Sequence record: MN158206.1
DNA: 46,880 bases
Source: Escherichia phage BEK2
Strand: one strand, 5' to 3'
Each line of letters begins with the position of its first letter. Position 1 is the first letter of the stretch. This document shows positions 1-44,925 of this stretch, in pieces. The notes under the pieces are model-generated. The model had not been told where the DNA came from. It searched no databases and was given only the letters and a program-made list of their open reading frames with translations. The translations under genes were made by a program, and so were the position numbers.

Positions 1-507
1 ATGAGCAAAGCAGCATTAAAGATGGGCGAAGGAAATTTCAAGGCGCTCTACAACAAGAAGTATGGCGATATTGCTATGGTGGCAATCAACCGCAAGTACA
101 CGCCTGAGGAAGTTTTCGATTTTGCGGTGAGATACTTCTCTTGGGCTGAAAGTGAGGTAATCAAAGCTATTGAGACGGCGGCTTTCCATGGCGTGGTTAG
201 TGAAAGCCTTGTACACAAACCGCGAGTGTTTACATTAACCGGGCTGGCGCTCTTTATGGGTGTTAACATCAATAGATTCGCTCGATGGCGCACTGAGGCT
301 GGATACTCTGATGTGATGGAATTTATTGATAACGTAATCTACGAGCAGAAGTACCAGCTTGGAGTTGCGGGTATCATCAACTCTACCATCGTTGGTAAAG
401 AGCTTGGTATTGATAAACCGCAGGAGATTAAGATTAGCAACAACTCCACAGCTAATGACGTTGATAGTATGAAGGAAGCACTGGAGTCCGTGATTAGTAA
501 GCTATAG
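1..507 (+). CDS. terminase small subunit (putative)
   Basis: 168-aa ORF directly upstream of the HNH/terL pair. ATG at nt 1 is served, across the window junction, by AAGGAGG (46868-46874) and a TGgTATAAT promoter (46847-46855). Assignment by size and position only. Confidence 0.55.
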   Translation: MSKAALKMGEGNFKALYNKKYGDIAMVAINRKYTPEEVFDFAVRYFSWAESEVIKAIETAAFHGVVSESLVHKPRVFTLTGLALFMGVNINRFARWRTEAGYSDVMEFIDNVIYEQKYQLGVAGIINSTIVGKELGIDKPQEIKISNNSTANDVDSMKEALESVISKL

Positions 508-575: not shown

Positions 576-1088
576 ATGAATTGGCATGATTATTTTGAAT
601 ACAAAGATGGGAAGATTTACTGGAAAGATTACGATAGCGAGAGGCTTGGAAGGAGAAGGATACAGCGAAGATTCATAGGGAAAGAGGTTGGCGGCATTGA
701 TAAAAGCCTAGGGTATGTTAGGGTAAACATGCCTGGTAAAAAATATTGGGTTCATAGAATAATCTGGGAGATGCATAACGGAGTAATACCAGAAGGTATG
801 CAAATTGACCGTATAAATCATGTTAGAAATGTTAATAGGATAGAAAACCTTAGGTTAGTTACAATTCAGGAAAATAGAAAGAATCAGTCAATAAATTCGA
901 GGAATAAGACCGGGGTTACCGGAGTCTGCATAGTATCTAGGACTGGCAAATATGCAGCTCAAATAAAAAAGGATGGAGAGAATATTCACTTGGGATTCTT
1001 TGATAATATTCACGACGCGTCGATTGTCAGGGCGAGGGCTGAATTTATTCTTGGGTATCATAAAAACCACGGGAGGAAAGATGAGTGA
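576..1088 (+). CDS. HNH-family homing endonuclease with AP2-like DNA-binding domain (HNH core degenerate)
   Basis: VHRIIWEMHNG...IDRINHVRNVNRIENLRLVT fits the phage HNH_3 pattern, but the usual D-H is D-R. TGVTGV...GKYAAQI...HLGFFD is AP2-like. Inserted between terS and terL; its stop overlaps the terL start (ATGAGTGA). Confidence 0.8.
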   Translation: MNWHDYFEYKDGKIYWKDYDSERLGRRRIQRRFIGKEVGGIDKSLGYVRVNMPGKKYWVHRIIWEMHNGVIPEGMQIDRINHVRNVNRIENLRLVTIQENRKNQSINSRNKTGVTGVCIVSRTGKYAAQIKKDGENIHLGFFDNIHDASIVRARAEFILGYHKNHGRKDE

Positions 1089-2652
1089 TTTAATCGTATG
1101 GGATGAGCTGACATACGCAGAAAAGATGGCTATCAAGGCCATCTCTGAGCATAGTTTCGAGGGGTTCTTGCGGTGTTTCTTCCAGATAACTCAGGGCGAG
1201 AGATTCAAAATGAATTGGCATGCGAAGTACCTATGCCGTGTTATAGATGAGATTCTCGAGGGAAAGAGAAAGGATACCATCATAAACGTAGCTCCCGGAT
1301 CAGCCAAAACCGAACTTTTTAGCATTCACTTCCCTGTGTATAGCATGATTAAGATTAAGAAGGTCAGGAATCTTAGTTTGTCGTTCTCTGATTCATTGGT
1401 TAAGCGCAACTCCAAACGCGTCCGTGACCTTATTAAGTCAAAGGAATTTCAGGAGCTCTGGCCTTGCACCTTTGGAACGTGCAGGGATGACGAGATTCAG
1501 GTTCTGGATGAGAATGGCAAAGTTAGGTTTGAGTCTATATCCAAGGCGATGGCAGGACAGGTGACGGGAAGCAGGGGAGGCTACATGACTGACGATTATA
1601 GTGGTTGCATAATGCTTGATGACCCACTAAAGCCTGATGACGCGTTAAGTAATGTAAGAAGAGAGGCTGTCAACATGCTTCTCAAGAACACAATTCGTTC
1701 ACGTCGAGCTAGCTCAGTAAAGGGAAAGGAAACGCCAATACTTTCCGTGCAGCAAAGACTTCATGTTCTGGACACTAGCCACTTCATGGAGTCAGGGCAA
1801 ATGGGCATAAAGTTCGACGTAGTGAAAGTTCCAGCCATAGTCACAGAGGATTACGCCGACACGCTTCCTGATTGGATCAAGCAACAATTTATTGATGATG
1901 TTCTTTCATCACCATTTGTAGAGCGGGATGGGGTTAAGTATTACAGCTACTTTCCGGCAAAGGAGTCAATAGAAGACCTGATGGCCATGTGGGATGCTGA
2001 CCAGTACACGTTCCTTAGTCAGTATCAACAAGAACCAGTAGCACTTGGCGGCAATCTGATTAACGTGGATTGGTTCCAGCGCCTTAGCGATACATTCAGA
2101 CCTCCCGCTAAGTATGATTATCGATTCATCACATGCGATACTGCGATGACTACAAAGAGTTATAGTGACTTCTCTGTACTTCAGTTGTGGGGCTATAAGG
2201 ACGCCAAGATTTACCTGATAGACCAGCGCAGAGGTAAGTGGGAGGCGCCAGAGTTGGAAGCTGAACTGCTGGACTTCGAGAAGAAATCAAGGGCAACCAG
2301 TCAGGCAGATGGCATCCTCCGAAAGATTATCATCGAGAAGAAAGCCTCTGGTATCGGTCTTATTCAATCGGCAGGTAGAGTTATGCGAACACCGATAGAG
2401 CCATACGTGCCGGATAACGACAAGCTAACTAGGGTAATGAGCGCATTGCCACAGATTAAAGCTGGTAACGTAGTTCTTCCCGAGTCAGCGTCGTGGTTAA
2501 ACGGATTGCTTACTGAGGTTGCGGCTTTTACGGCAGATGATTCGCATAAGCACGATGACCAAATTGATACCATGACAATGGCAATCAACCTGGTTCTGAA
2601 CATTGCGGACGATCCTAAGGCGCGACTAATGCGCATAGCGGGAATTAAATAG
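1081..2652 (+). CDS. terL: terminase large subunit
   Basis: Walker A-like VAPGSAKT and Walker B-like CIMLDDPLKPDD. C-terminal acidic nuclease-type motifs (ITCDTAMT, HKHDDQIDT). GGGAGG SD before ATG 1081. The 973 start in the ORF track lies inside the HNH gene. Confidence 0.85.
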   Translation: MSDLIVWDELTYAEKMAIKAISEHSFEGFLRCFFQITQGERFKMNWHAKYLCRVIDEILEGKRKDTIINVAPGSAKTELFSIHFPVYSMIKIKKVRNLSLSFSDSLVKRNSKRVRDLIKSKEFQELWPCTFGTCRDDEIQVLDENGKVRFESISKAMAGQVTGSRGGYMTDDYSGCIMLDDPLKPDDALSNVRREAVNMLLKNTIRSRRASSVKGKETPILSVQQRLHVLDTSHFMESGQMGIKFDVVKVPAIVTEDYADTLPDWIKQQFIDDVLSSPFVERDGVKYYSYFPAKESIEDLMAMWDADQYTFLSQYQQEPVALGGNLINVDWFQRLSDTFRPPAKYDYRFITCDTAMTTKSYSDFSVLQLWGYKDAKIYLIDQRRGKWEAPELEAELLDFEKKSRATSQADGILRKIIIEKKASGIGLIQSAGRVMRTPIEPYVPDNDKLTRVMSALPQIKAGNVVLPESASWLNGLLTEVAAFTADDSHKHDDQIDTMTMAINLVLNIADDPKARLMRIAGIK

Positions 2653-11535: not shown

Positions 11536-14520
11536 ATGGCAACAAATGAATTAGCCGGAATCACGCTAGCCGTAGACGTCTCGCAGGTAGACAGGGGAAC
11601 GCAATCCCTACAGAAGTTCAGACAGGCCAACCAACAGGCTGCCTCTGGGATTAGTGAGTTCGTCAATGCTGAGCAGGTAGCAAAAACTCAGGCCAGAGAC
11701 ACGGCTCGCGCACTTGCTGAGCAGCAAGCATCACTTGCTAAGCTGCAAACGGCTATTGATCCAACTGCGGCAAAGTTCCGTAAACTCCAGGAGGCTGCTG
11801 TAGGTCTGGATAAGGCTTTCGCGGCTGGCGTAGTTCCTGATGAGGAGTTTTTCCGGTTAGGTGAGGCACTTGAAACGCAGAACGCAAAACTTGCCCGATC
11901 ACGTGCGGCGCTAACTGAGGAGGGAAGGGCGGCAGCACAGGCTGCAAAGGATAAGGCAAAAGCAAAGGCAGAGGCTGACAGATTTATCGCATCACTTGAG
12001 CGCCAGGCTCAAGCGGCAACATTGACGCGTGAGGAGTACTTAAAGTTACAGGCTGCTCAGCTTGGGGTAAGTTCTCAGGCAGCGCCTATTATTGACAGAA
12101 TCGCCGATGCATCACAGAAGGCAAACACCCAGTTAATTGCCCAGAGCAAGGCTTTTCAACGCTCTGGCTTAAGCGCAGGTCAATACAAGGCTGCAATCTC
12201 TCAATTGCCAGCGCAGATTACAGACATTGGCACATCACTTGCTGGCGGCATCCCGATCTGGCTTATTGCAATTCAGCAGGGTGGGCAAATTAAGGATGCA
12301 TTTGGTGGTATTGGCAACACCTTTAGATTCGCGCTCGCAGCCTTAAATCCATTCAATGTTGCTGTTGGTGTTTTGGGTGGGGCGCTTGTAGCTCTTGGTG
12401 TCGGTGCAGCTCAGGCTGAAAGTGAATTCAGGGCGTTAAACTCAGCTATTGCATTCTCCAACAACTCTACAATCGCATCAATCTCGCAGGTTAGAGAGTT
12501 GGTTAGCTCTGTTTCTGATGCAACAGGTGCCACCAGAGGGCTTGTGACTAGCATCGCAACAAGCCTTATTGAGCAAGGGAACCTTACGCTGACGCAGATT
12601 GACAAGATTACCAAATCAACCGCCAGATGGGCGCAGCTTACCGGAAAAGATGCAAAGGAAATTACTGGTTACTACAACCAGATTGCGAGCGACCCAATCC
12701 AGGGTTTGGTTGATTTGGATAAGCGCTTTAACTTCCTCACCAAGGGGCAGTTAACGACAATCGAAAACCTTAGGAAGACAAAGGGAGAGGTTGAGGCTGT
12801 TACCGCCGCAATTGACATTTTCAGTAAGTCCCAGGAAGCCAACCTTAACGACATAGCAGCGCAGTTAACTCCACTTGAGCTAGCCTGGAATGATTTCAAA
12901 AAGTACATCTCCGATATCTGGGATGCAATTAGTCGCAGAACAGTTGGGGCACTGAACCTGTTTGTTGACGTAATCGCCGGAACAATTGAGCAGATCAGGG
13001 TATTCATTAACCAGGGGGATGCCCTGATTGGTGAATTCGTAATTAGCGCAACTCAGGCATTGCAGAATATCCCCGGCCTTGATGGTGTCGGTGATGATGT
13101 AATCAAGAGTCAGCAGAAGATTATCGATGCCGCCAAGAAGCAAAACCTTGAGTTAGAAAAGTCTATCAAGGAGCGCGATGCCAGAATCAGGGAGGGAGAG
13201 CTTGGTTACGTTACTCGCAGAGAAAATCAGAATACCAATGAGCAGTCAGGCACGGATGAGGAGTTTGCAAAAAGGAAGAAGGCGCTTCAGGATGAACTTG
13301 ATGCGATCAAGAAAAACAGAGCCGAGGAGAAGGGTAGGGTTAAAGAGCAAAGGGATCTAACGATAGGTTATGAATCTGGCGTGCTGGCACTTCAGGCCCA
13401 ACTCAAGGCTCTTAAGGAAAACAGGGATGTCGGCGCAGTAATAAGCAATGAGAGCAATCAGTATCGTCAGGAGGTTGCTAAATTCCAGATTCTTGAGCAG
13501 AGGCAACTTGATGGCTCAATTACCAAAGAGCAAGCAAGGCTTCTCATTGAAAAGGATAAAGTTCTTGAGTTGGCTAGGCAGAAGGCTGAACTAGGTGACC
13601 AGATTGTTTTGCAGGAGCGAGCCAATAAGTTAGCTGAAGATAACCGCAAGAAGATTCTTCAGATTAACAATGAAGCAAATAACATTGATTTGGGTGCTGG
13701 CCTGTCTTCTCGTGAACAGCAGAGAGCTAAGGAGATTCAGGCTCTTCAGTCCAATCAGGTTAATGCTGGTGGTTCTGTTGATGATGTTGATTTTCAGCAA
13801 TTGCTGGAAGCAAGAAAGGAATACTACAAGCAGGAGGATAATCTTAGGTCAGACTGGCAAGCTGGCGTAACGTCAACCCTCGCTGACTTGACTGAGAAGT
13901 ACACTGATTACAACCAGATTGCTAAGGACTTGACAGTTGCGGCATTCGATGGAATTACAGACCAGATTACAAACCTTGTAACCACTGGTGAGACCAACTT
14001 CAGGGAGTTCACCGCAAACATCCTCAAAATGATTGCGAAGATTGCAACTCAGTTACTTTTGGTTAAGGCTATTGAATCTACAATCAAGAGCTTTGGTGGT
14101 GACACTGGTGCAGGTAGCGCTTTCGAGTCAATAAAGTCAGCAATTGGTTTCGCTGGCGGCGGCTACACTGGTGACGGCGGGAAGTATCAGCCAGCAGGTA
14201 CGGTGCATCGCGGGGAGTTTGTATTCACAAAAGAGGCAACTAGCCGAATTGGTGTGAAAAACCTTTACGCACTAATGAAGGGTTATGCAAACGGCGGAGC
14301 GGTTGGCGGTCCATCTGGTTATGCTAATGGCGGCTTGGTTTCTGGTGGTGCTGATGTTAATGTTAGTGGCATCACTGTTAACGTAAACTCGGGTGTAGGT
14401 AGCGATCCGGAGCAAGCTAAGGCACTGCAAAATGGCGTCAAGGCTATCGTAGCGGAAGAGATTTCTCAGTCCTTCCAGCAAGGCGGAAGAGCTTATCAGT
14501 ACCTTCGAGGATTCAACTAA
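11536..14520 (+). CDS. tape measure protein
   Basis: 994 aa. Long Ala/Gln/Glu-rich helical regions, a central hydrophobic segment (GGIPIWLIAIQQGG...VGVLGGALVALGVGAAQA), Gly-rich C-terminus. GGAGG SD. Confidence 0.9.
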   Translation: MATNELAGITLAVDVSQVDRGTQSLQKFRQANQQAASGISEFVNAEQVAKTQARDTARALAEQQASLAKLQTAIDPTAAKFRKLQEAAVGLDKAFAAGVVPDEEFFRLGEALETQNAKLARSRAALTEEGRAAAQAAKDKAKAKAEADRFIASLERQAQAATLTREEYLKLQAAQLGVSSQAAPIIDRIADASQKANTQLIAQSKAFQRSGLSAGQYKAAISQLPAQITDIGTSLAGGIPIWLIAIQQGGQIKDAFGGIGNTFRFALAALNPFNVAVGVLGGALVALGVGAAQAESEFRALNSAIAFSNNSTIASISQVRELVSSVSDATGATRGLVTSIATSLIEQGNLTLTQIDKITKSTARWAQLTGKDAKEITGYYNQIASDPIQGLVDLDKRFNFLTKGQLTTIENLRKTKGEVEAVTAAIDIFSKSQEANLNDIAAQLTPLELAWNDFKKYISDIWDAISRRTVGALNLFVDVIAGTIEQIRVFINQGDALIGEFVISATQALQNIPGLDGVGDDVIKSQQKIIDAAKKQNLELEKSIKERDARIREGELGYVTRRENQNTNEQSGTDEEFAKRKKALQDELDAIKKNRAEEKGRVKEQRDLTIGYESGVLALQAQLKALKENRDVGAVISNESNQYRQEVAKFQILEQRQLDGSITKEQARLLIEKDKVLELARQKAELGDQIVLQERANKLAEDNRKKILQINNEANNIDLGAGLSSREQQRAKEIQALQSNQVNAGGSVDDVDFQQLLEARKEYYKQEDNLRSDWQAGVTSTLADLTEKYTDYNQIAKDLTVAAFDGITDQITNLVTTGETNFREFTANILKMIAKIATQLLLVKAIESTIKSFGGDTGAGSAFESIKSAIGFAGGGYTGDGGKYQPAGTVHRGEFVFTKEATSRIGVKNLYALMKGYANGGAVGGPSGYANGGLVSGGADVNVSGITVNVNSGVGSDPEQAKALQNGVKAIVAEEISQSFQQGGRAYQYLRGFN

Positions 14521-23252: not shown

Positions 23253-23296
23253 AATATACCTAAAGATAGTCAGTTGTCTTTAGCAATTAGTGCTAT
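23253..23296 (-). promoter_or_regulatory. box promoter cassette P5
   Basis: Minus strand: ATAGCACTAATTGCTAAA (23296-23279), 22-nt spacer, TATATT (23258-23253). Confidence 0.6.
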
Positions 23297-23320
23297 TTAT
23301 CGCCAATTTCACCACAAATC

Positions 23321-23645
23321 ACAGTTACACGTAACCGATGTAACTCGATGTATACAATCTCATTCGCGGAAAATGATATACGCGCCGTTACGCAAATTTA
23401 CGCAATAGTTACATTAAAATATCTATATATATCAACCTTTTACTATTATTATTATTATATATATTACTGTGTATATCATGTAACTACTGTTCTGGAGTGT
23501 TCCGGTTATAATTTTAATATCATGTGGATTTATACAGTATTGTGTGGCAGCCATACCAATGCACCCCCCGCAAGAAACGGTATACACGATATACACGATG
23601 GTTACATTGAGCTATATCTGGGCTGAGATGCCATTTTACGTAACA
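23321..23645. repeat. non-coding iteron/AT-rich region A (homolog of 41906-42231)
   Basis: More than 8 copies of GTAAC/GTTAC (often CGTAAC). (TA)n and (TAT)n runs (23443-23466). TATACACGA x2 (23581-23598). A 42-nt block (23603-23644) is 36/42 identical to 42189-42230. Only junk ORFs (poly-Tyr). Confidence 0.8.
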
Positions 23646-23699
23646 AGTTGCAATGCCTACACGGAATTACAAGTATTCACGCGTAAGTTTAAATCAACG

Positions 23700-23743
23700 A
23701 TTGGCAAAACCAATTGGACTGGCTACGGTACCGAATATATAGT
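23700..23743 (+). promoter_or_regulatory. degenerate box promoter cassette P6
   Basis: ATTGGCAAAACCAAT inverted repeat (23700-23714) at the box position, TATAGT (23738-23743), leader CATCGAAAGCAAGC (23749-23762). Confidence 0.45.
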
Positions 23744-23780
23744 TACCTCATCGAAAGCAAGCAACCAGAGAGATACAGAA

Positions 23781-23975
23781 ATGACCTACTACATTATCAA
23801 AGAGAAAAACAACGCACTGTTCGGCGATTGCTACTTTGGAGGCGAGGCCGGTTACACCACCGATAAGAATGAGGCAGACCGATTCGATACCAAAGAAGAA
23901 GCCAGGGATGTGCTGACTGGTTACTTCACTGAAGAAGATTTGAAGTCTGTTAAAGTAGTTAAGGTCAAGGGGTGA
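23781..23975 (+). CDS. hypothetical protein
   Basis: 64 aa from ATG 23781. The upstream part of track ORF 23544-23975 is non-coding region A plus the promoter. Confidence 0.55.
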   Translation: MTYYIIKEKNNALFGDCYFGGEAGYTTDKNEADRFDTKEEARDVLTGYFTEEDLKSVKVVKVKG

Positions 23976-30438: not shown

Positions 30439-30482
30439 ACCATACCTCATCCATGAGAAATGTCTTTAGCTTTTCGTGCTGC
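30439..30482 (-). promoter_or_regulatory. box promoter cassette P10 (inside coding sequence)
   Basis: Minus strand: GCAGCACGAAAAGCTAAA (30482-30465), 22-nt spacer, TATGGT (30444-30439), leader ACATCGAAAGCCGA. The box is translated as AARKAK near the C-terminus of the HTH protein. Confidence 0.5.
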
Positions 30483-30932
30483 CTCGTTAGCGGCCTTAAT
30501 CTTGCGCCATGAGCGACACTCTGGCTTGGTGGCTAATTCTGCATCAGTGACCACGCGCAGCATGTGACGTTTTTTGCAGCGCAGGGTTAGAGGCTTGCCA
30601 TTGCCGTCGAATTGCAGATCTGGTCGGCAGAATGTGGCTCTAAAACCTTCCCCGGTTCGTTTGTAGTAGTTGTGCGATAACTGAGCACCACGTGCGGAAA
30701 TCATGCCGCGCTTAAACCATTCTTCTACAGCCTGTGGTGTTACCTTTAGCTGCTTTGCGATATTCGCTTTTGTGCCGAAGAAATCAAGAACTATATCTAG
30801 TCGCGCGCGTAGTCCGGCTCTTACTTCATCTTTTAAAACGTAGTAGCCTGAAGGTCGTTTGCGTTGTTTTTTGTCTTCAGTGCGGATAGTTCCGTTGTTC
30901 CCGTTGATTGTTCGCTTGTCGACTGTATTCAT
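30447..30932 (-). CDS. HTH DNA-binding protein (Cro/YdaS-like), candidate transcription regulator
   Basis: GTKANIAKQLKVTPQAVEEWFKRG is a helix-turn-helix segment. Basic N- and C-termini. GAGGT SD. Confidence 0.6.
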   Translation of the reverse strand: MNTVDKRTINGNNGTIRTEDKKQRKRPSGYYVLKDEVRAGLRARLDIVLDFFGTKANIAKQLKVTPQAVEEWFKRGMISARGAQLSHNYYKRTGEGFRATFCRPDLQFDGNGKPLTLRCKKRHMLRVVTDAELATKPECRSWRKIKAANEAARKAKDISHG

Positions 30933-36389: not shown

Positions 36390-36875
36390 ATGAAGCAGAA
36401 GCTGGCCATTAGTGCTGCGACAGCTGCGGCAATATACATAGCAGCGCCACTTATTGAGCTTGTGGAGGGTGTAGAGAATAAGCCGTATATTGACATTGCT
36501 GGGGTGAAAACAGTTTGTTCAGGGATCACTGGCAACGACGTAGTTTGGGGTAAAACTTACAGTAACAGGGAATGCAGAAACCTGCTGGAGAAACACATTC
36601 AGATTCATGGGAAGCATGTTCAGGATGCTGTAACCTACCAAATTGCACCGCAGACAAGGGCGGCTTTAATCAGCTTTAGCTACAATGTTGGCGGCTCTGC
36701 GATGAGGAAGTCTACGGCTGTTAAATTAATTAACCAGGGCAAGATTGAGCAAGGTTGCAAGGCTCTCGGGATGTGGGACAAGGCTCGAGTTAACGGGAAA
36801 CTGAAGGTAGTTAAAGGCCTGGTGAATCGCAGGAATGAGGAGATTAAGTTATGCTTAAGTGGATTGCAGCGTTAG
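36390..36875 (+). CDS. SAR endolysin (T4-lysozyme/GH24 type)
   Basis: N-terminal signal-anchor AISAATAAAIYIAAPLI. Catalytic E-x8-D-x5-T spacing in EGVENKPYIDIAGVKT. Overall pattern as in the P21 R family. Confidence 0.8.
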   Translation: MKQKLAISAATAAAIYIAAPLIELVEGVENKPYIDIAGVKTVCSGITGNDVVWGKTYSNRECRNLLEKHIQIHGKHVQDAVTYQIAPQTRAALISFSYNVGGSAMRKSTAVKLINQGKIEQGCKALGMWDKARVNGKLKVVKGLVNRRNEEIKLCLSGLQR

Positions 36876-41300: not shown

Positions 41301-41344
41301 ACTATACGCCATCCGTGGCGGTGAGTTTTAGCAATTCGTGCTAT
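41301..41344 (-). promoter_or_regulatory. box promoter cassette P17
   Basis: Minus strand: ATAGCACGAATTGCTAAA (41344-41327), a 22-nt spacer with a CGCCA/TGGCG hairpin, TATAGT (41306-41301), leader CATCGAAACGAAACG. The box encodes NSTNC plus a stop. Confidence 0.7.
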
Positions 41345-41633
41345 TGCGTTCGATGTATGCATTAATTTCTTCAGCAGTTTCCATTGCGGAGCGGAAAGCG
41401 CCTTTTGCGTGGCGAGAATCTCGGAATGACTGGAAAAATTTACGAGCAACGTTTGCGAACATCGCGCCAGTGATACGAGAATCACCGAAATTAGTTTCGA
41501 TTGAGTTACTGATGCCATCACGGAACTCATTCTCAGCCATGAACATCTCAGCCATTTCTGCGGTGGCGAAAAGGTCTGCCAGTGCTTGCATGTTTTCGTG
41601 GTCAGCTTTAGTGAAAAGGTTCATGTTAATCAT
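41328..41633 (-). CDS. hypothetical protein
   Basis: 101 aa, helical/acidic, GGAG SD. C-terminus NSTNC is encoded by the box. Confidence 0.6.
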   Translation of the reverse strand: MINMNLFTKADHENMQALADLFATAEMAEMFMAENEFRDGISNSIETNFGDSRITGAMFANVARKFFQSFRDSRHAKGAFRSAMETAEEINAYIERNSTNC

Positions 41634-41670: not shown

Positions 41671-41715
41671 ATAATAGCGAATCACACCCGATCGGTCATT
41701 AGCAAAAAGTGCTAT
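41671..41715 (-). promoter_or_regulatory. box promoter cassette P18
   Basis: Minus strand: ATAGCACTTTTTGCTAAT (41715-41698), 23-nt spacer, TATTAT (41676-41671), leader CCATCGAAACGAAG. Confidence 0.6.
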
Positions 41716-41728
41716 TCGTTAGATTTAT

Positions 41729-41816
41729 GGATTGTTGCAGATATTGCAATGATTCACATAATTATTGCACATACAGCAATATTGCTTCAGATGCAATGAT
41801 GTTTTTGATTGTTGCG
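41729..41816. repeat. cluster of ATTGCA/TGCAAT-type short repeats and palindromes
   Basis: GATTGTTGC x2 (41730, 41807), TGCAATGAT x2 (41745, 41792), palindromes ATTGCAAT (41744-41751) and GCAATATTGC (41776-41785). Non-coding. Confidence 0.7.
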
Positions 41817-41905
41817 AAAAGTGAAATGAAGTGGGGAGTGAGCGAATGAAAGATGGATGGACTACCATACAAGTTGATTTTGATTCTGGCTGGGCCATTT
41901 TCACG

Positions 41906-42231
41906 CCTACACGTAACGCCAGTAGCGCGATGTAAGCCAAGGCCAATCGTTACGTGAGTTACGCGCAGCTACGCCCGGACTTACACTATAAGTGCTTAAT
42001 ATATATATATATCTTCTTTCTATTATTATTATTAATATTAATATTATTGTATGTAAGTCGTGTAACGTGGGTCCTAGCGATATCTATATGTTTTTTCCTA
42101 TCAGAATACATTATTGCTATTTTATGTGGGATTTAGCCAGTATGGGGCCATTGCACTCATTTGCCTCGTTACACGCACGACACGAAACTACATTGAGCTA
42201 TAGCTGGGCTGGTGTGCCATTTCGCGTAACG
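41906..42231. repeat. non-coding iteron/AT-rich region B (homolog of 23321-23645)
   Basis: CGTAACG/CGTTACG copies at 41912, 41948, 41958, 42062, 42167, 42225. (TA)n at 41998-42012 and (TAT)n at 42021-42048. A 42-nt block (42189-42230) is 36/42 identical to 23603-23644. Confidence 0.8.
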
Positions 42232-42258
42232 ACCCCCAAAAGTTACCAAAAATTACAC

Positions 42259-42287
42259 TTGACTACATGTGTAAGTCGGGATATGAT
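42259..42287 (+). promoter_or_regulatory. sigma70-type promoter
   Basis: TTGACT (42259-42264), 17-nt spacer, TATGAT (42282-42287). No palindromic box. Confidence 0.65.
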
Positions 42288-42318
42288 GGACTCAACTTAA
42301 ACGAGAGGAGTGATAGAG

Positions 42319-42798
42319 ATGAACGAGAAGGTAACATTAGGCCAAGTGATTCGTGAGATGGTAAAGGCGGCGCTTAAGTCTGAGGATAAGCAGATCAGCG
42401 TGACACTCAACAAGATTGAGAGCCTTATTGGCGCAGAGGAGGGTGGTCTACATAAGCTTAAGAGCTCATACATCTATAATACAACGGCTCGCATGCCTGA
42501 GTTGAGAGATGCCGGACTGAAGGCGACCCACCATTATGATGAGGATGAGGGTGATAGTGAGTTTGGTGAAACCACTCTGGCTGGGGAAAAGAAGTTAGTT
42601 ATCAAGCTGATTCCTGGAGCTGCAAACATTGGAATCAGGAAGAAGACCAACGACGCGATCAAGGATGAGGCAATCAATGGGTTCAAGGCCAAGATTTCGA
42701 AGGTGATGCCAGACCTCTCTGAGTATGAGGGTGAAGCGCTTGCAGCCGCCATGAAGGCCATTAAGGATTACCGTTTAATTATTGAGGAGATTAAGTAA
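42319..42798 (+). CDS. hypothetical acidic protein
   Basis: 159 aa from ATG 42319 (GAGAGGAG SD). TAATG coupling to the truncated P-loop paralog. Confidence 0.6.
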   Translation: MNEKVTLGQVIREMVKAALKSEDKQISVTLNKIESLIGAEEGGLHKLKSSYIYNTTARMPELRDAGLKATHHYDEDEGDSEFGETTLAGEKKLVIKLIPGAANIGIRKKTNDAIKDEAINGFKAKISKVMPDLSEYEGEALAAAMKAIKDYRLIIEEIK

Positions 42799-44721: not shown

Positions 44722-44855
44722 TTTACATCCACACGTACTACACTGGTAAGTTTAATAGCGTTAAGCATGCTCGAGTTCACGATAGCTACGATAGTGCAAA
44801 GGCTCAATGGTTGGTTCTTGGTGGTGATATTAATTCATATAGAGTCGCTGAATAG
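44718..44855 (+). CDS. hypothetical micro-protein
   Basis: 45 aa. ATGA overlap upstream; stop TAG inside box P22. Confidence 0.45.
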   Translation: MIYIHTYYTGKFNSVKHARVHDSYDSAKAQWLVLGGDINSYRVAE

Positions 44856-44895
44856 CACTAATTGCTAAAACAGTATTGGGGTAATTTGTTATAGT
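44852..44895 (+). promoter_or_regulatory. box promoter cassette P22
   Basis: ATAGCACTAATTGCTAAA (44852-44869), 22-nt spacer, TATAGT (44890-44895), leader CATCGAAACGAACG (44901-44914). Confidence 0.7.
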
Positions 44896-44925
44896 TACCC
44901 CATCGAAACGAACGAGGAAGCAGAA

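Follow-up and report, generated by a model that had tools for sequence, protein, structure and literature searches.

Packaging sites with repeated elements are familiar from SPP1 (pacL and pacR), P1 (pac, with arrays of TGATCA/G hexamers) and lambda (cosB, with its R sites), in all of which a stretch of about 100 bp next to the point of cleavage holds several short repeated binding sites. The pac of P22 is a single asymmetric 22-bp sequence, GAAGATTTATCTGAAGTCGTTA, located inside the gene of the small terminase, TerS (quoted in PMC11447400). For T1-like phages, the SU57 paper places pac in the untranslated region that joins two divergent sets of small genes, and restriction mapping of TLS puts it in the same untranslated junction region of T1-like genomes (PMC11447400). 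Published guesses at the signal itself are an AGATTT word, chosen by its similarity to P22 pac, and ATATA repeats (PMC11447400; PMC8421802). In the literature that we searched, the T1-like pac is described as unidentified or is guessed at, and a four-site architecture is not described.

Described binding elements outside packaging also resemble the locus reported here. A 21-nt promoter-associated repeat, aaATAGCACnnnTTGnTAAAA (the P-box), has already been described for TLS and other T1-like phages (PMC11447400); it has the same core spacing as our sites, T[AT]GC-N7-GC[AT]A, and one copy lies directly beside them. The operators of Escherichia coli CytR share with the locus TGCAA/TTGCA pentamer half-sites of flexible spacing and orientation (PMC3454398).

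The window analysed is a stretch of 46,880 nt from Escherichia phage BEK2 (record MN158206.1). A sequence-only reading had picked out a dense cluster of ATTGCA/TGCAAT repeats next to promoter P18 and taken it for an array of binding sites, either a regulatory array for P18 or an accessory origin element. Our analysis indicates that an initiation region for headful packaging explains the stretch better than control of P18 or replication does.

Results

The repeat cluster is specific to one of two paralogous hubs

The window phage belongs to the Braunvirinae (Drexlerviridae) and is T1/Rtp-like. The repeat cluster sits in a 680-bp non-coding gap between divergent sets of small genes (Table 1), the rightward set of which continues into the small terminase, an HNH endonuclease, the large terminase (TerL) and the structural genes. 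On its left the cluster is bordered by the P18 box, a copy of the P-box that is essentially invariant in an alignment of 20 relatives. The P-box core, TAGCA-N5-TGCTA, matches 21 times in the window, where 1.9 matches are expected (repeat family D3).

The P-box palindromes (21 copies, for example at 44851-44908 and 41697-41719) are centred about 41.5 bp upstream of the inferred promoter start, and the promoters have an extended -10 element (TGnTATAGT) and no -35. In this geometry they resemble the sites of class II activators, for instance CRP or FNR.

There are two hubs, A (23276-23790) and B (41695-42330), which may serve as origins or as hubs of early divergent promoters. Each combines a P-box pointing leftward, iteron-like repeats (TACGC/GTAACG), a (TA)n/AT-rich tract and a promoter pointing rightward. 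Global alignment shows them to be collinear paralogues, in which 41695-41716 pairs with 23276-23297 (the P-boxes) and the sequence from 41901 onward with that from 23319 onward (60-85% identity). Between these blocks, 41717-41900 is the sole large B-specific segment, replacing about 21 nt of hub A. The repeat cluster is thus essentially this insertion, and the statement of the sequence-only reading that region A has no counterpart is correct.

Four palindromic sites form a symmetric array

All the words that had been listed for the cluster are present: GATTGTTGC at 41730 and 41807, TGCAATGAT at 41745 and 41792, the palindrome GCAATATTGC at 41776-41785 and ATTGCAC at 41764-41770. The palindrome ATTGCAAT is there too, one base away from where it had been placed (41743-41750, not 41744-41751). 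The words are far above chance, and repeat finding groups a 23-nt unit, GATTGTTGC-N7-GCAATGA, as repeat family D1. The tetramer TTGC/GCAA occurs eight times in 41725-41830, against a mean of 1.34 per 106-nt interval of the genome, and no 106-nt interval outside the repeat region reaches eight anywhere in the whole genome. For ATTGC/GCAAT the count is six (genome mean 0.43; maximum of four in 2000 shuffles).

Taken together, the ATTGCA/TGCAAT words make up the arms of four palindromes of 15 bp, with the form TTGC-N7-GCAA (TTGCN-N5-NGCAA), denoted sites S1 to S4 (Table 1). The right arm of S4 is degenerate in the window phage and in DTL; among the 18 other phages aligned it is GCAA in 17 and TCAA in C119. 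With their centres at 41742, 41772, 41789 and 41819, the sites are spaced 30, 17 and 30 nt apart and are dyad-symmetric about 41780.5, which is at the same time the centre of a perfect 12-bp palindrome, AGCAATATTGCT. Clustered or paired TTGC-N7-GCAA sites occur in the window genome only at 41735-41826. On our reading of the sequence, no -10 element stands at promoter distance from the array sites.

One isolated exact TTGC-N7-GCAA site, TTGCTATGGTGGCAA, lies at 71-85 within the TerS gene, and Braunvirinae relatives retain it; it may be due to chance or may simply be conserved coding sequence.

Table 1. Features of the proposed pac region and of its genomic surroundings (positions in the window).
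Feature	Coordinates	Strand	Basis or remark
Small terminase (TerS) gene, P22 gp3 family	1-507	+	Candidate array reader; ~5 kb downstream in packaging direction
HNH endonuclease ORF	576-1088		Between, and overlapping, the TerS and TerL genes; Pfam HNH_3
ORF containing large terminase (TerL)	973-2652	+	phrog_38, E = 5e-105; Pfam Terminase_6C
Leftward small genes, left of gap (last CDS)	41328-41633
P18 box	41697-41719	-	Copy of Drexlerviridae 21-nt promoter-associated repeat, aaATAGCACnnnTTGnTAAAA; left border of cassette
P18 box core palindrome, TAGCA-N5-TGCTA	41700-41714
B-specific conserved cassette, proposed pac region	41717-41900	.	A/B alignment and BLAST conservation
23-nt unit GATTGTTGC-N7-GCAATGA, copy 1	41730-41752	+	Contains S1; repeat family D1
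Site S1, TTGCAGATATTGCAA	41735-41749	.	Exact match; cores conserved in 20 phages
Site S2, TTGCACATACAGCAA	41765-41779	.	Match and 20-phage core conservation
Perfect 12-bp palindrome AGCAATATTGCT (AGCAAT/ATTGCT)	41775-41786	.	S2 right arm and S3 left arm
Site S3, TTGCTTCAGATGCAA	41782-41796	.	Match and 20-phage core conservation
23-nt unit GATTGTTGC-N7-GCAATGA, copy 2	41807-41829	+	Contains S4; starts 77 nt after copy 1
Site S4, TTGCGAAAAGTGAAA	41812-41826	.	Right arm degenerate in window phage
Zone homologous to relatives' first-headful terminus (pac cut)	41857-41865	+	Msk, UDF157lw, Rao1; packaging rightward
Conserved block GTTGATTTT (GTTGRTTTT in relatives)	41873-41881	.	Packaged side of cut; conservation profile
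Rightward small genes, right of gap (first CDS)	42319-42798

The array is conserved in register

BLAST finds the segment from 41695 to about 41900/41915 at 80-96% identity in more than 100 Drexlerviridae records, with flanks that differ. We aligned 20 phages with TerS proteins of 64-98% identity. Conservation amounts to 97% over the 32 TTGC/GCAA core positions, 78% over the spacers within the sites and 87% over the sequence between the sites. When the core mask is slid along this alignment, conservation is maximal at register 0, and no indels occur across 41720-41828. The array is thus conserved in related genomes, a check that the sequence-only reading had proposed, and core conservation together with fixed spacing is a phylogenetic footprint of what appear, from the alignment, to be protein-binding sites under a strict spacing constraint.

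The packaging terminus of relatives lies beside the array

For phage Msk, PhageTerm identified pac-type packaging with a single forward-strand terminus at 36,862 (p = 1.6e-9) and a forward packaging direction (PMC8421802). Since Msk 36855 aligns to window position 41858, the terminus corresponds to window position 41865. For UDF157lw, whose record was deposited PhageTerm-reorganised and described as 'headful with a preferred pac site' (PMC10838988), the first position corresponds to 41858; the Rao1 record opens one base to the left of this, at 41857. Our literature search found no paper explaining the start of the Rao1 record, and the papers on Ro145clw and SH6 give no termini for T1-like phages. 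The three positions come from relatives, not from the window phage, and were taken from short statements in papers and from record starts; as they fall within 9 nt in genomes of about 45 kb, chance coincidence is very unlikely. The packaging start of this phage group therefore falls inside the interval picked out by the sequence-only reading.

About 40 bp separate S4 from the cut zone on its right; the array falls on the side not packaged first. Within the segment 41695 to about 41900, several records of relatives in GenBank have their start or their end, and those of T1 and TLS open in the homologous cassette. In T1, base 1 of the record is left of both sites rather than right of them; if this is a true end, the geometry is not conserved.

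Comparison with P22 and other packaging systems

TerS of the window phage matches Pfam PF16677 (GP3_package, E = 5e-13) and phrog_606 (terminase small subunit, E = 8e-56), and tblastn aligns it with P22 gp3 at 27.6% identity (E = 6e-12). The window phage and P22 thus have the same TerS family (PF16677), and both systems are headful and unidirectional with a preferred start site. Whereas the P22 signal is asymmetric and intragenic, the candidate array of the window phage consists of four palindromes, is symmetric and is located in a non-coding hub, with TerS about 5 kb further downstream. The 22-bp pac of P22 is not matched here (11 of 22 positions at 41719-41740) and contains no TTGC-N7-GCAA. 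A P22-pac-like 8-mer at 41721, AGATTTAT, the basis of the published TLS assignment, was rejected: it occurs 10 times in the window genome and is therefore uninformative.

The array is like SPP1 pacL in lying on the unpackaged side of the cut and, again as in SPP1, overlaps a promoter region. It differs from the signals of SPP1, P1 and lambda in its motif (TTGC-N7-GCAA palindromes), and the TerS of the window phage is of a different family. No Dam (GATC) or IHF sites are present in the array.

Two further genes may be mentioned. The HNH endonuclease ORF of the window has merely an HNH-like remnant as its counterpart between the small and large terminase genes of RobRod40. Beside the primase, 30447-30932 (minus strand) encodes a 161-aa protein with a sub-threshold Cro-like helix-turn-helix (HTH) match (PF14549, 26.6 bits against a cut-off of 30.2), and the syntenic gene beside the RobRod40 primase is annotated 'transcriptional regulator'. 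This 161-aa protein is a candidate for reading either the P-box or the array.

Cassettes of other Drexlerviridae lineages

Across the family the cassette is found in a constant place, right of the last P-box that points leftward, with TerS 4-9 kb downstream. Four TTGC-N7-GCAA sites are found in Braunvirinae and Rogunavirinae, whose TerS proteins are 64-98% identical to that of the window phage. T1 and Webervirus-like phages have two such sites, 30-31 bp apart, at the same genomic position, and TLS-like and other lineages have GATTG/GATTTG repeats and other palindromes there. T1 has two copies of the 23-nt unit, Klebsiella phage K50 one. The centres of the P-box and of the first site are 35 bp apart in the window phage, against about 77 bp in Webervirus-like contigs and about 102 bp in T1.

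The P-box is essentially unchanged across lineages whose cassette repeats differ. Lineage-specific cassette repeats beside a constant P-box imply that the reader of the cassette is lineage-specific, as TerS would be, and a reader that varies with lineage is easier to reconcile with a terminase subunit or another phage protein than with a host protein or the factor that reads the P-box. The cassette motifs do change with the TerS lineage, but so does every lineage-specific factor, and covariation therefore cannot single out TerS. Two Webervirus-like IMG/VR contigs have a second exact site pair, 31 nt apart, inside a head-morphogenesis ORF (14094-14139), which counts against assigning the sites to pac; the window phage has no equivalent of this second pair.

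At the array position of the TLS record (about 49793-49822) there are two tandem copies of another 14-bp palindrome, AGACCGATTGGTCT, followed by GATC-rich sequence and then by GATTTG repeats at the record start. A purine-rich box at 41831-41846 reads GTGGGGAGTGAG in the window phage and GAGAGGGGGGAT in T1, with GGAGGGG or AGGGGAG in others; in every Drexlerviridae lineage inspected, including T1 and K50, it comes after the lineage-specific repeats and just upstream of the cut zone.

Alternative explanations for the array

It is barely conceivable that the stretch encodes a small protein, whether the 40/46-aa Cys-rich product of a plus-strand ORF (41727-41849) or a 73-aa product of the minus strand, and that the repeats are a by-product of codon usage. 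The sequence-only reading had named the minus-strand frame (41725-41946) as the only ORF across the stretch, and here it was mistaken, as a plus-strand ORF (41709/41727-41849) spans it as well. Both are open in the window phage, about 100 nt run without indels, and a counterpart of the plus-strand ORF is annotated in the GenBank records of some relatives (as a hypothetical or membrane protein in AKS96, Opt-79, CEB_EC3a and Phagiculus). However, the plus-strand ORF has a premature stop or no start in 10 of 20 phages (Rtp, JeanPiccard, e4/1c, C119, Jk06, Rogue1, UDF157lw, ETEP102, IME542 and EB49), and stops interrupt the minus-strand ORF in Msk, IME542, Rao1, CY1, e4/1c and GaoY1, among others. 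Substitutions in the plus-strand ORF are distributed 19/20/29 over the three codon positions, with no clear third-position excess, the TTGC motif recurs in two different reading frames, and inspection of the sequence finds no Shine-Dalgarno element and no room for a promoter. PHROGs gave no match for the ORFs overlapping the array. As both ORFs are broken in several relatives, the array is to be regarded as a DNA element; conservation, the broken ORFs and the A/B alignment together support the earlier description of the stretch as a putative non-coding array of binding-site-like repeats specific to region B. A structured RNA was rejected, the only Rfam match being ES003 with 22 bits against a gathering score of 37 (E = 0.08), and the 'terminator-like' hairpin at 41728-41756 is the palindrome S1, situated between divergent promoters. 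An accessory replication-origin element in hub B, with initiator or DnaA loading sites beside an AT-rich tract, is very improbable. The (TA)n tract and the iteron-like TACGC/GTAACG repeats that would suit it lie about 150-250 bp to the right of the array, but they are common to hub A, which is without the array; of two one-mismatch DnaA boxes, at 41750 and 41763, the first has a CACA that is not conserved in relatives. Nothing in the analysis links the array to replication, and this part of the sequence-only reading was not supported. Among the candidates tried in the array, CRP, IHF, Dam and DnaA sites are either absent or not conserved, and a sigma-54 promoter of the TGGCAC-N5-TTGC type was rejected, the GC-to-GC spacing being 2 nt too short for the known consensus.

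The main alternative, a serious one although we consider it less likely, is that the four palindromes are operators for a dimeric regulator of the early divergent hub, acting on P18 and/or the rightward promoter. The reader could be the P-box factor, its paralogue, the Cro-like HTH protein (30447-30932), for which the genome provides a weak, sub-threshold match, or host CytR; other parts of the cassette, for instance the purine-rich box or the GATTG/GTTGATTTT words, would then set the nearby pac cut. The array is immediately adjacent to the P18 box, and its 15-bp palindromes share the P-box spacing, with half-sites one base apart (TAGC and TTGC). This architecture (TAGCA-N5-TGCTA against TTGCA-N5-TGCAA) speaks against a packaging signal, and palindromic sites fit a dimeric HTH regulator better than a ring-shaped TerS, which is expected to read direct repeats. 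TLS-like phages, moreover, keep GATTG-type repeats near the mapped end and have no TTGC-N7-GCAA. P-boxes, in contrast, are directional and are followed by a -10 element about 22 bp later, whereas the array sites have no -10 partner and occur at one locus only. Promoters are laid out in the same way in the paralogous hub A, where the array is missing, the distance between P-box and array varies by lineage as given above, and the P-box is invariant while the cassette motifs change between lineages, which argues against one shared reader. As for CytR, the half-site equals its consensus (TGCAA/TTGCA), and AGCAA-TA-TTGCT agrees with TGCAA-N2-TTGCA in 8 positions out of 10. The array is, however, mainly TTGCA-N5-TGCAA where CytR operators are TGCAA-N2-3-TTGCA, and natural CytR operators lie between two CRP sites; no such flanking pair is found at the array, where the best CRP-like match is a single one at 7 of 10. 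TLS-type E. coli phages are without the sites, so a host factor is not generally required. Of the earlier proposal, the array of binding-site-like repeats is supported; its assignment to P18 is not supported as it was put, given the varying P-box distance, the absence of a -10 element and the relatives' terminus inside the interval.

Discussion

We conclude that 41717-41900 is probably the pac cassette of a headful T1/Rtp-like phage, with the TTGC-N7-GCAA array as its putative terminase-recognition element. Properties expected of a pac site and of its phage were found: a preferred DNA end beside the element in relatives (41865, 41858 and 41857), a headful-type terminase (TerS and TerL), and uniqueness, with the site cluster present only at 41735-41826 and the cassette absent from hub A. 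Clustering of the sites at a single locus is as expected of a single pac site.

The array would be read by the packaging machinery, and TerS is presumably the protein that binds it. We suggest that TerS would assemble on the array, possibly with an accessory dimeric DNA-binding protein, and that the array, on the unpackaged side of the cut, would position the large terminase for cutting, much as SPP1 pacL, P1 pac or lambda cosB do. The terminase would make its first cut on the concatemer at about 41857-41865, some 40 bp to the right of the last site, after which packaging would proceed to the right, first across the small early genes and then in the direction of the terminase and structural genes. 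It is possible, and we put this forward tentatively, that the four palindromes are themselves the pac recognition determinant of T1/Rtp-like phages, read by a P22-gp3-family TerS in a symmetric multi-site mode, with an architecture derived from or shared with the P-box.

A pac region is a well-known kind of element, and the four-site array appears to be new in the literature searched. T1-like phages are common laboratory and fermentation contaminants, generalised transducers and candidates for phage therapy. If a cassette of some 185 bp is defined, including four sites open to testing and a cut zone that has been mapped, packaging specificity and transduction could be examined directly. A defined cassette could also let genome records open at a biologically meaningful position, serve in pac-plasmid or phagemid tools, and allow one to ask how a P22-type small terminase reads a multi-site signal. 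If the palindromes are indeed a pac determinant with P-box-related architecture, cis-elements for transcription and for packaging would be linked in these phages.
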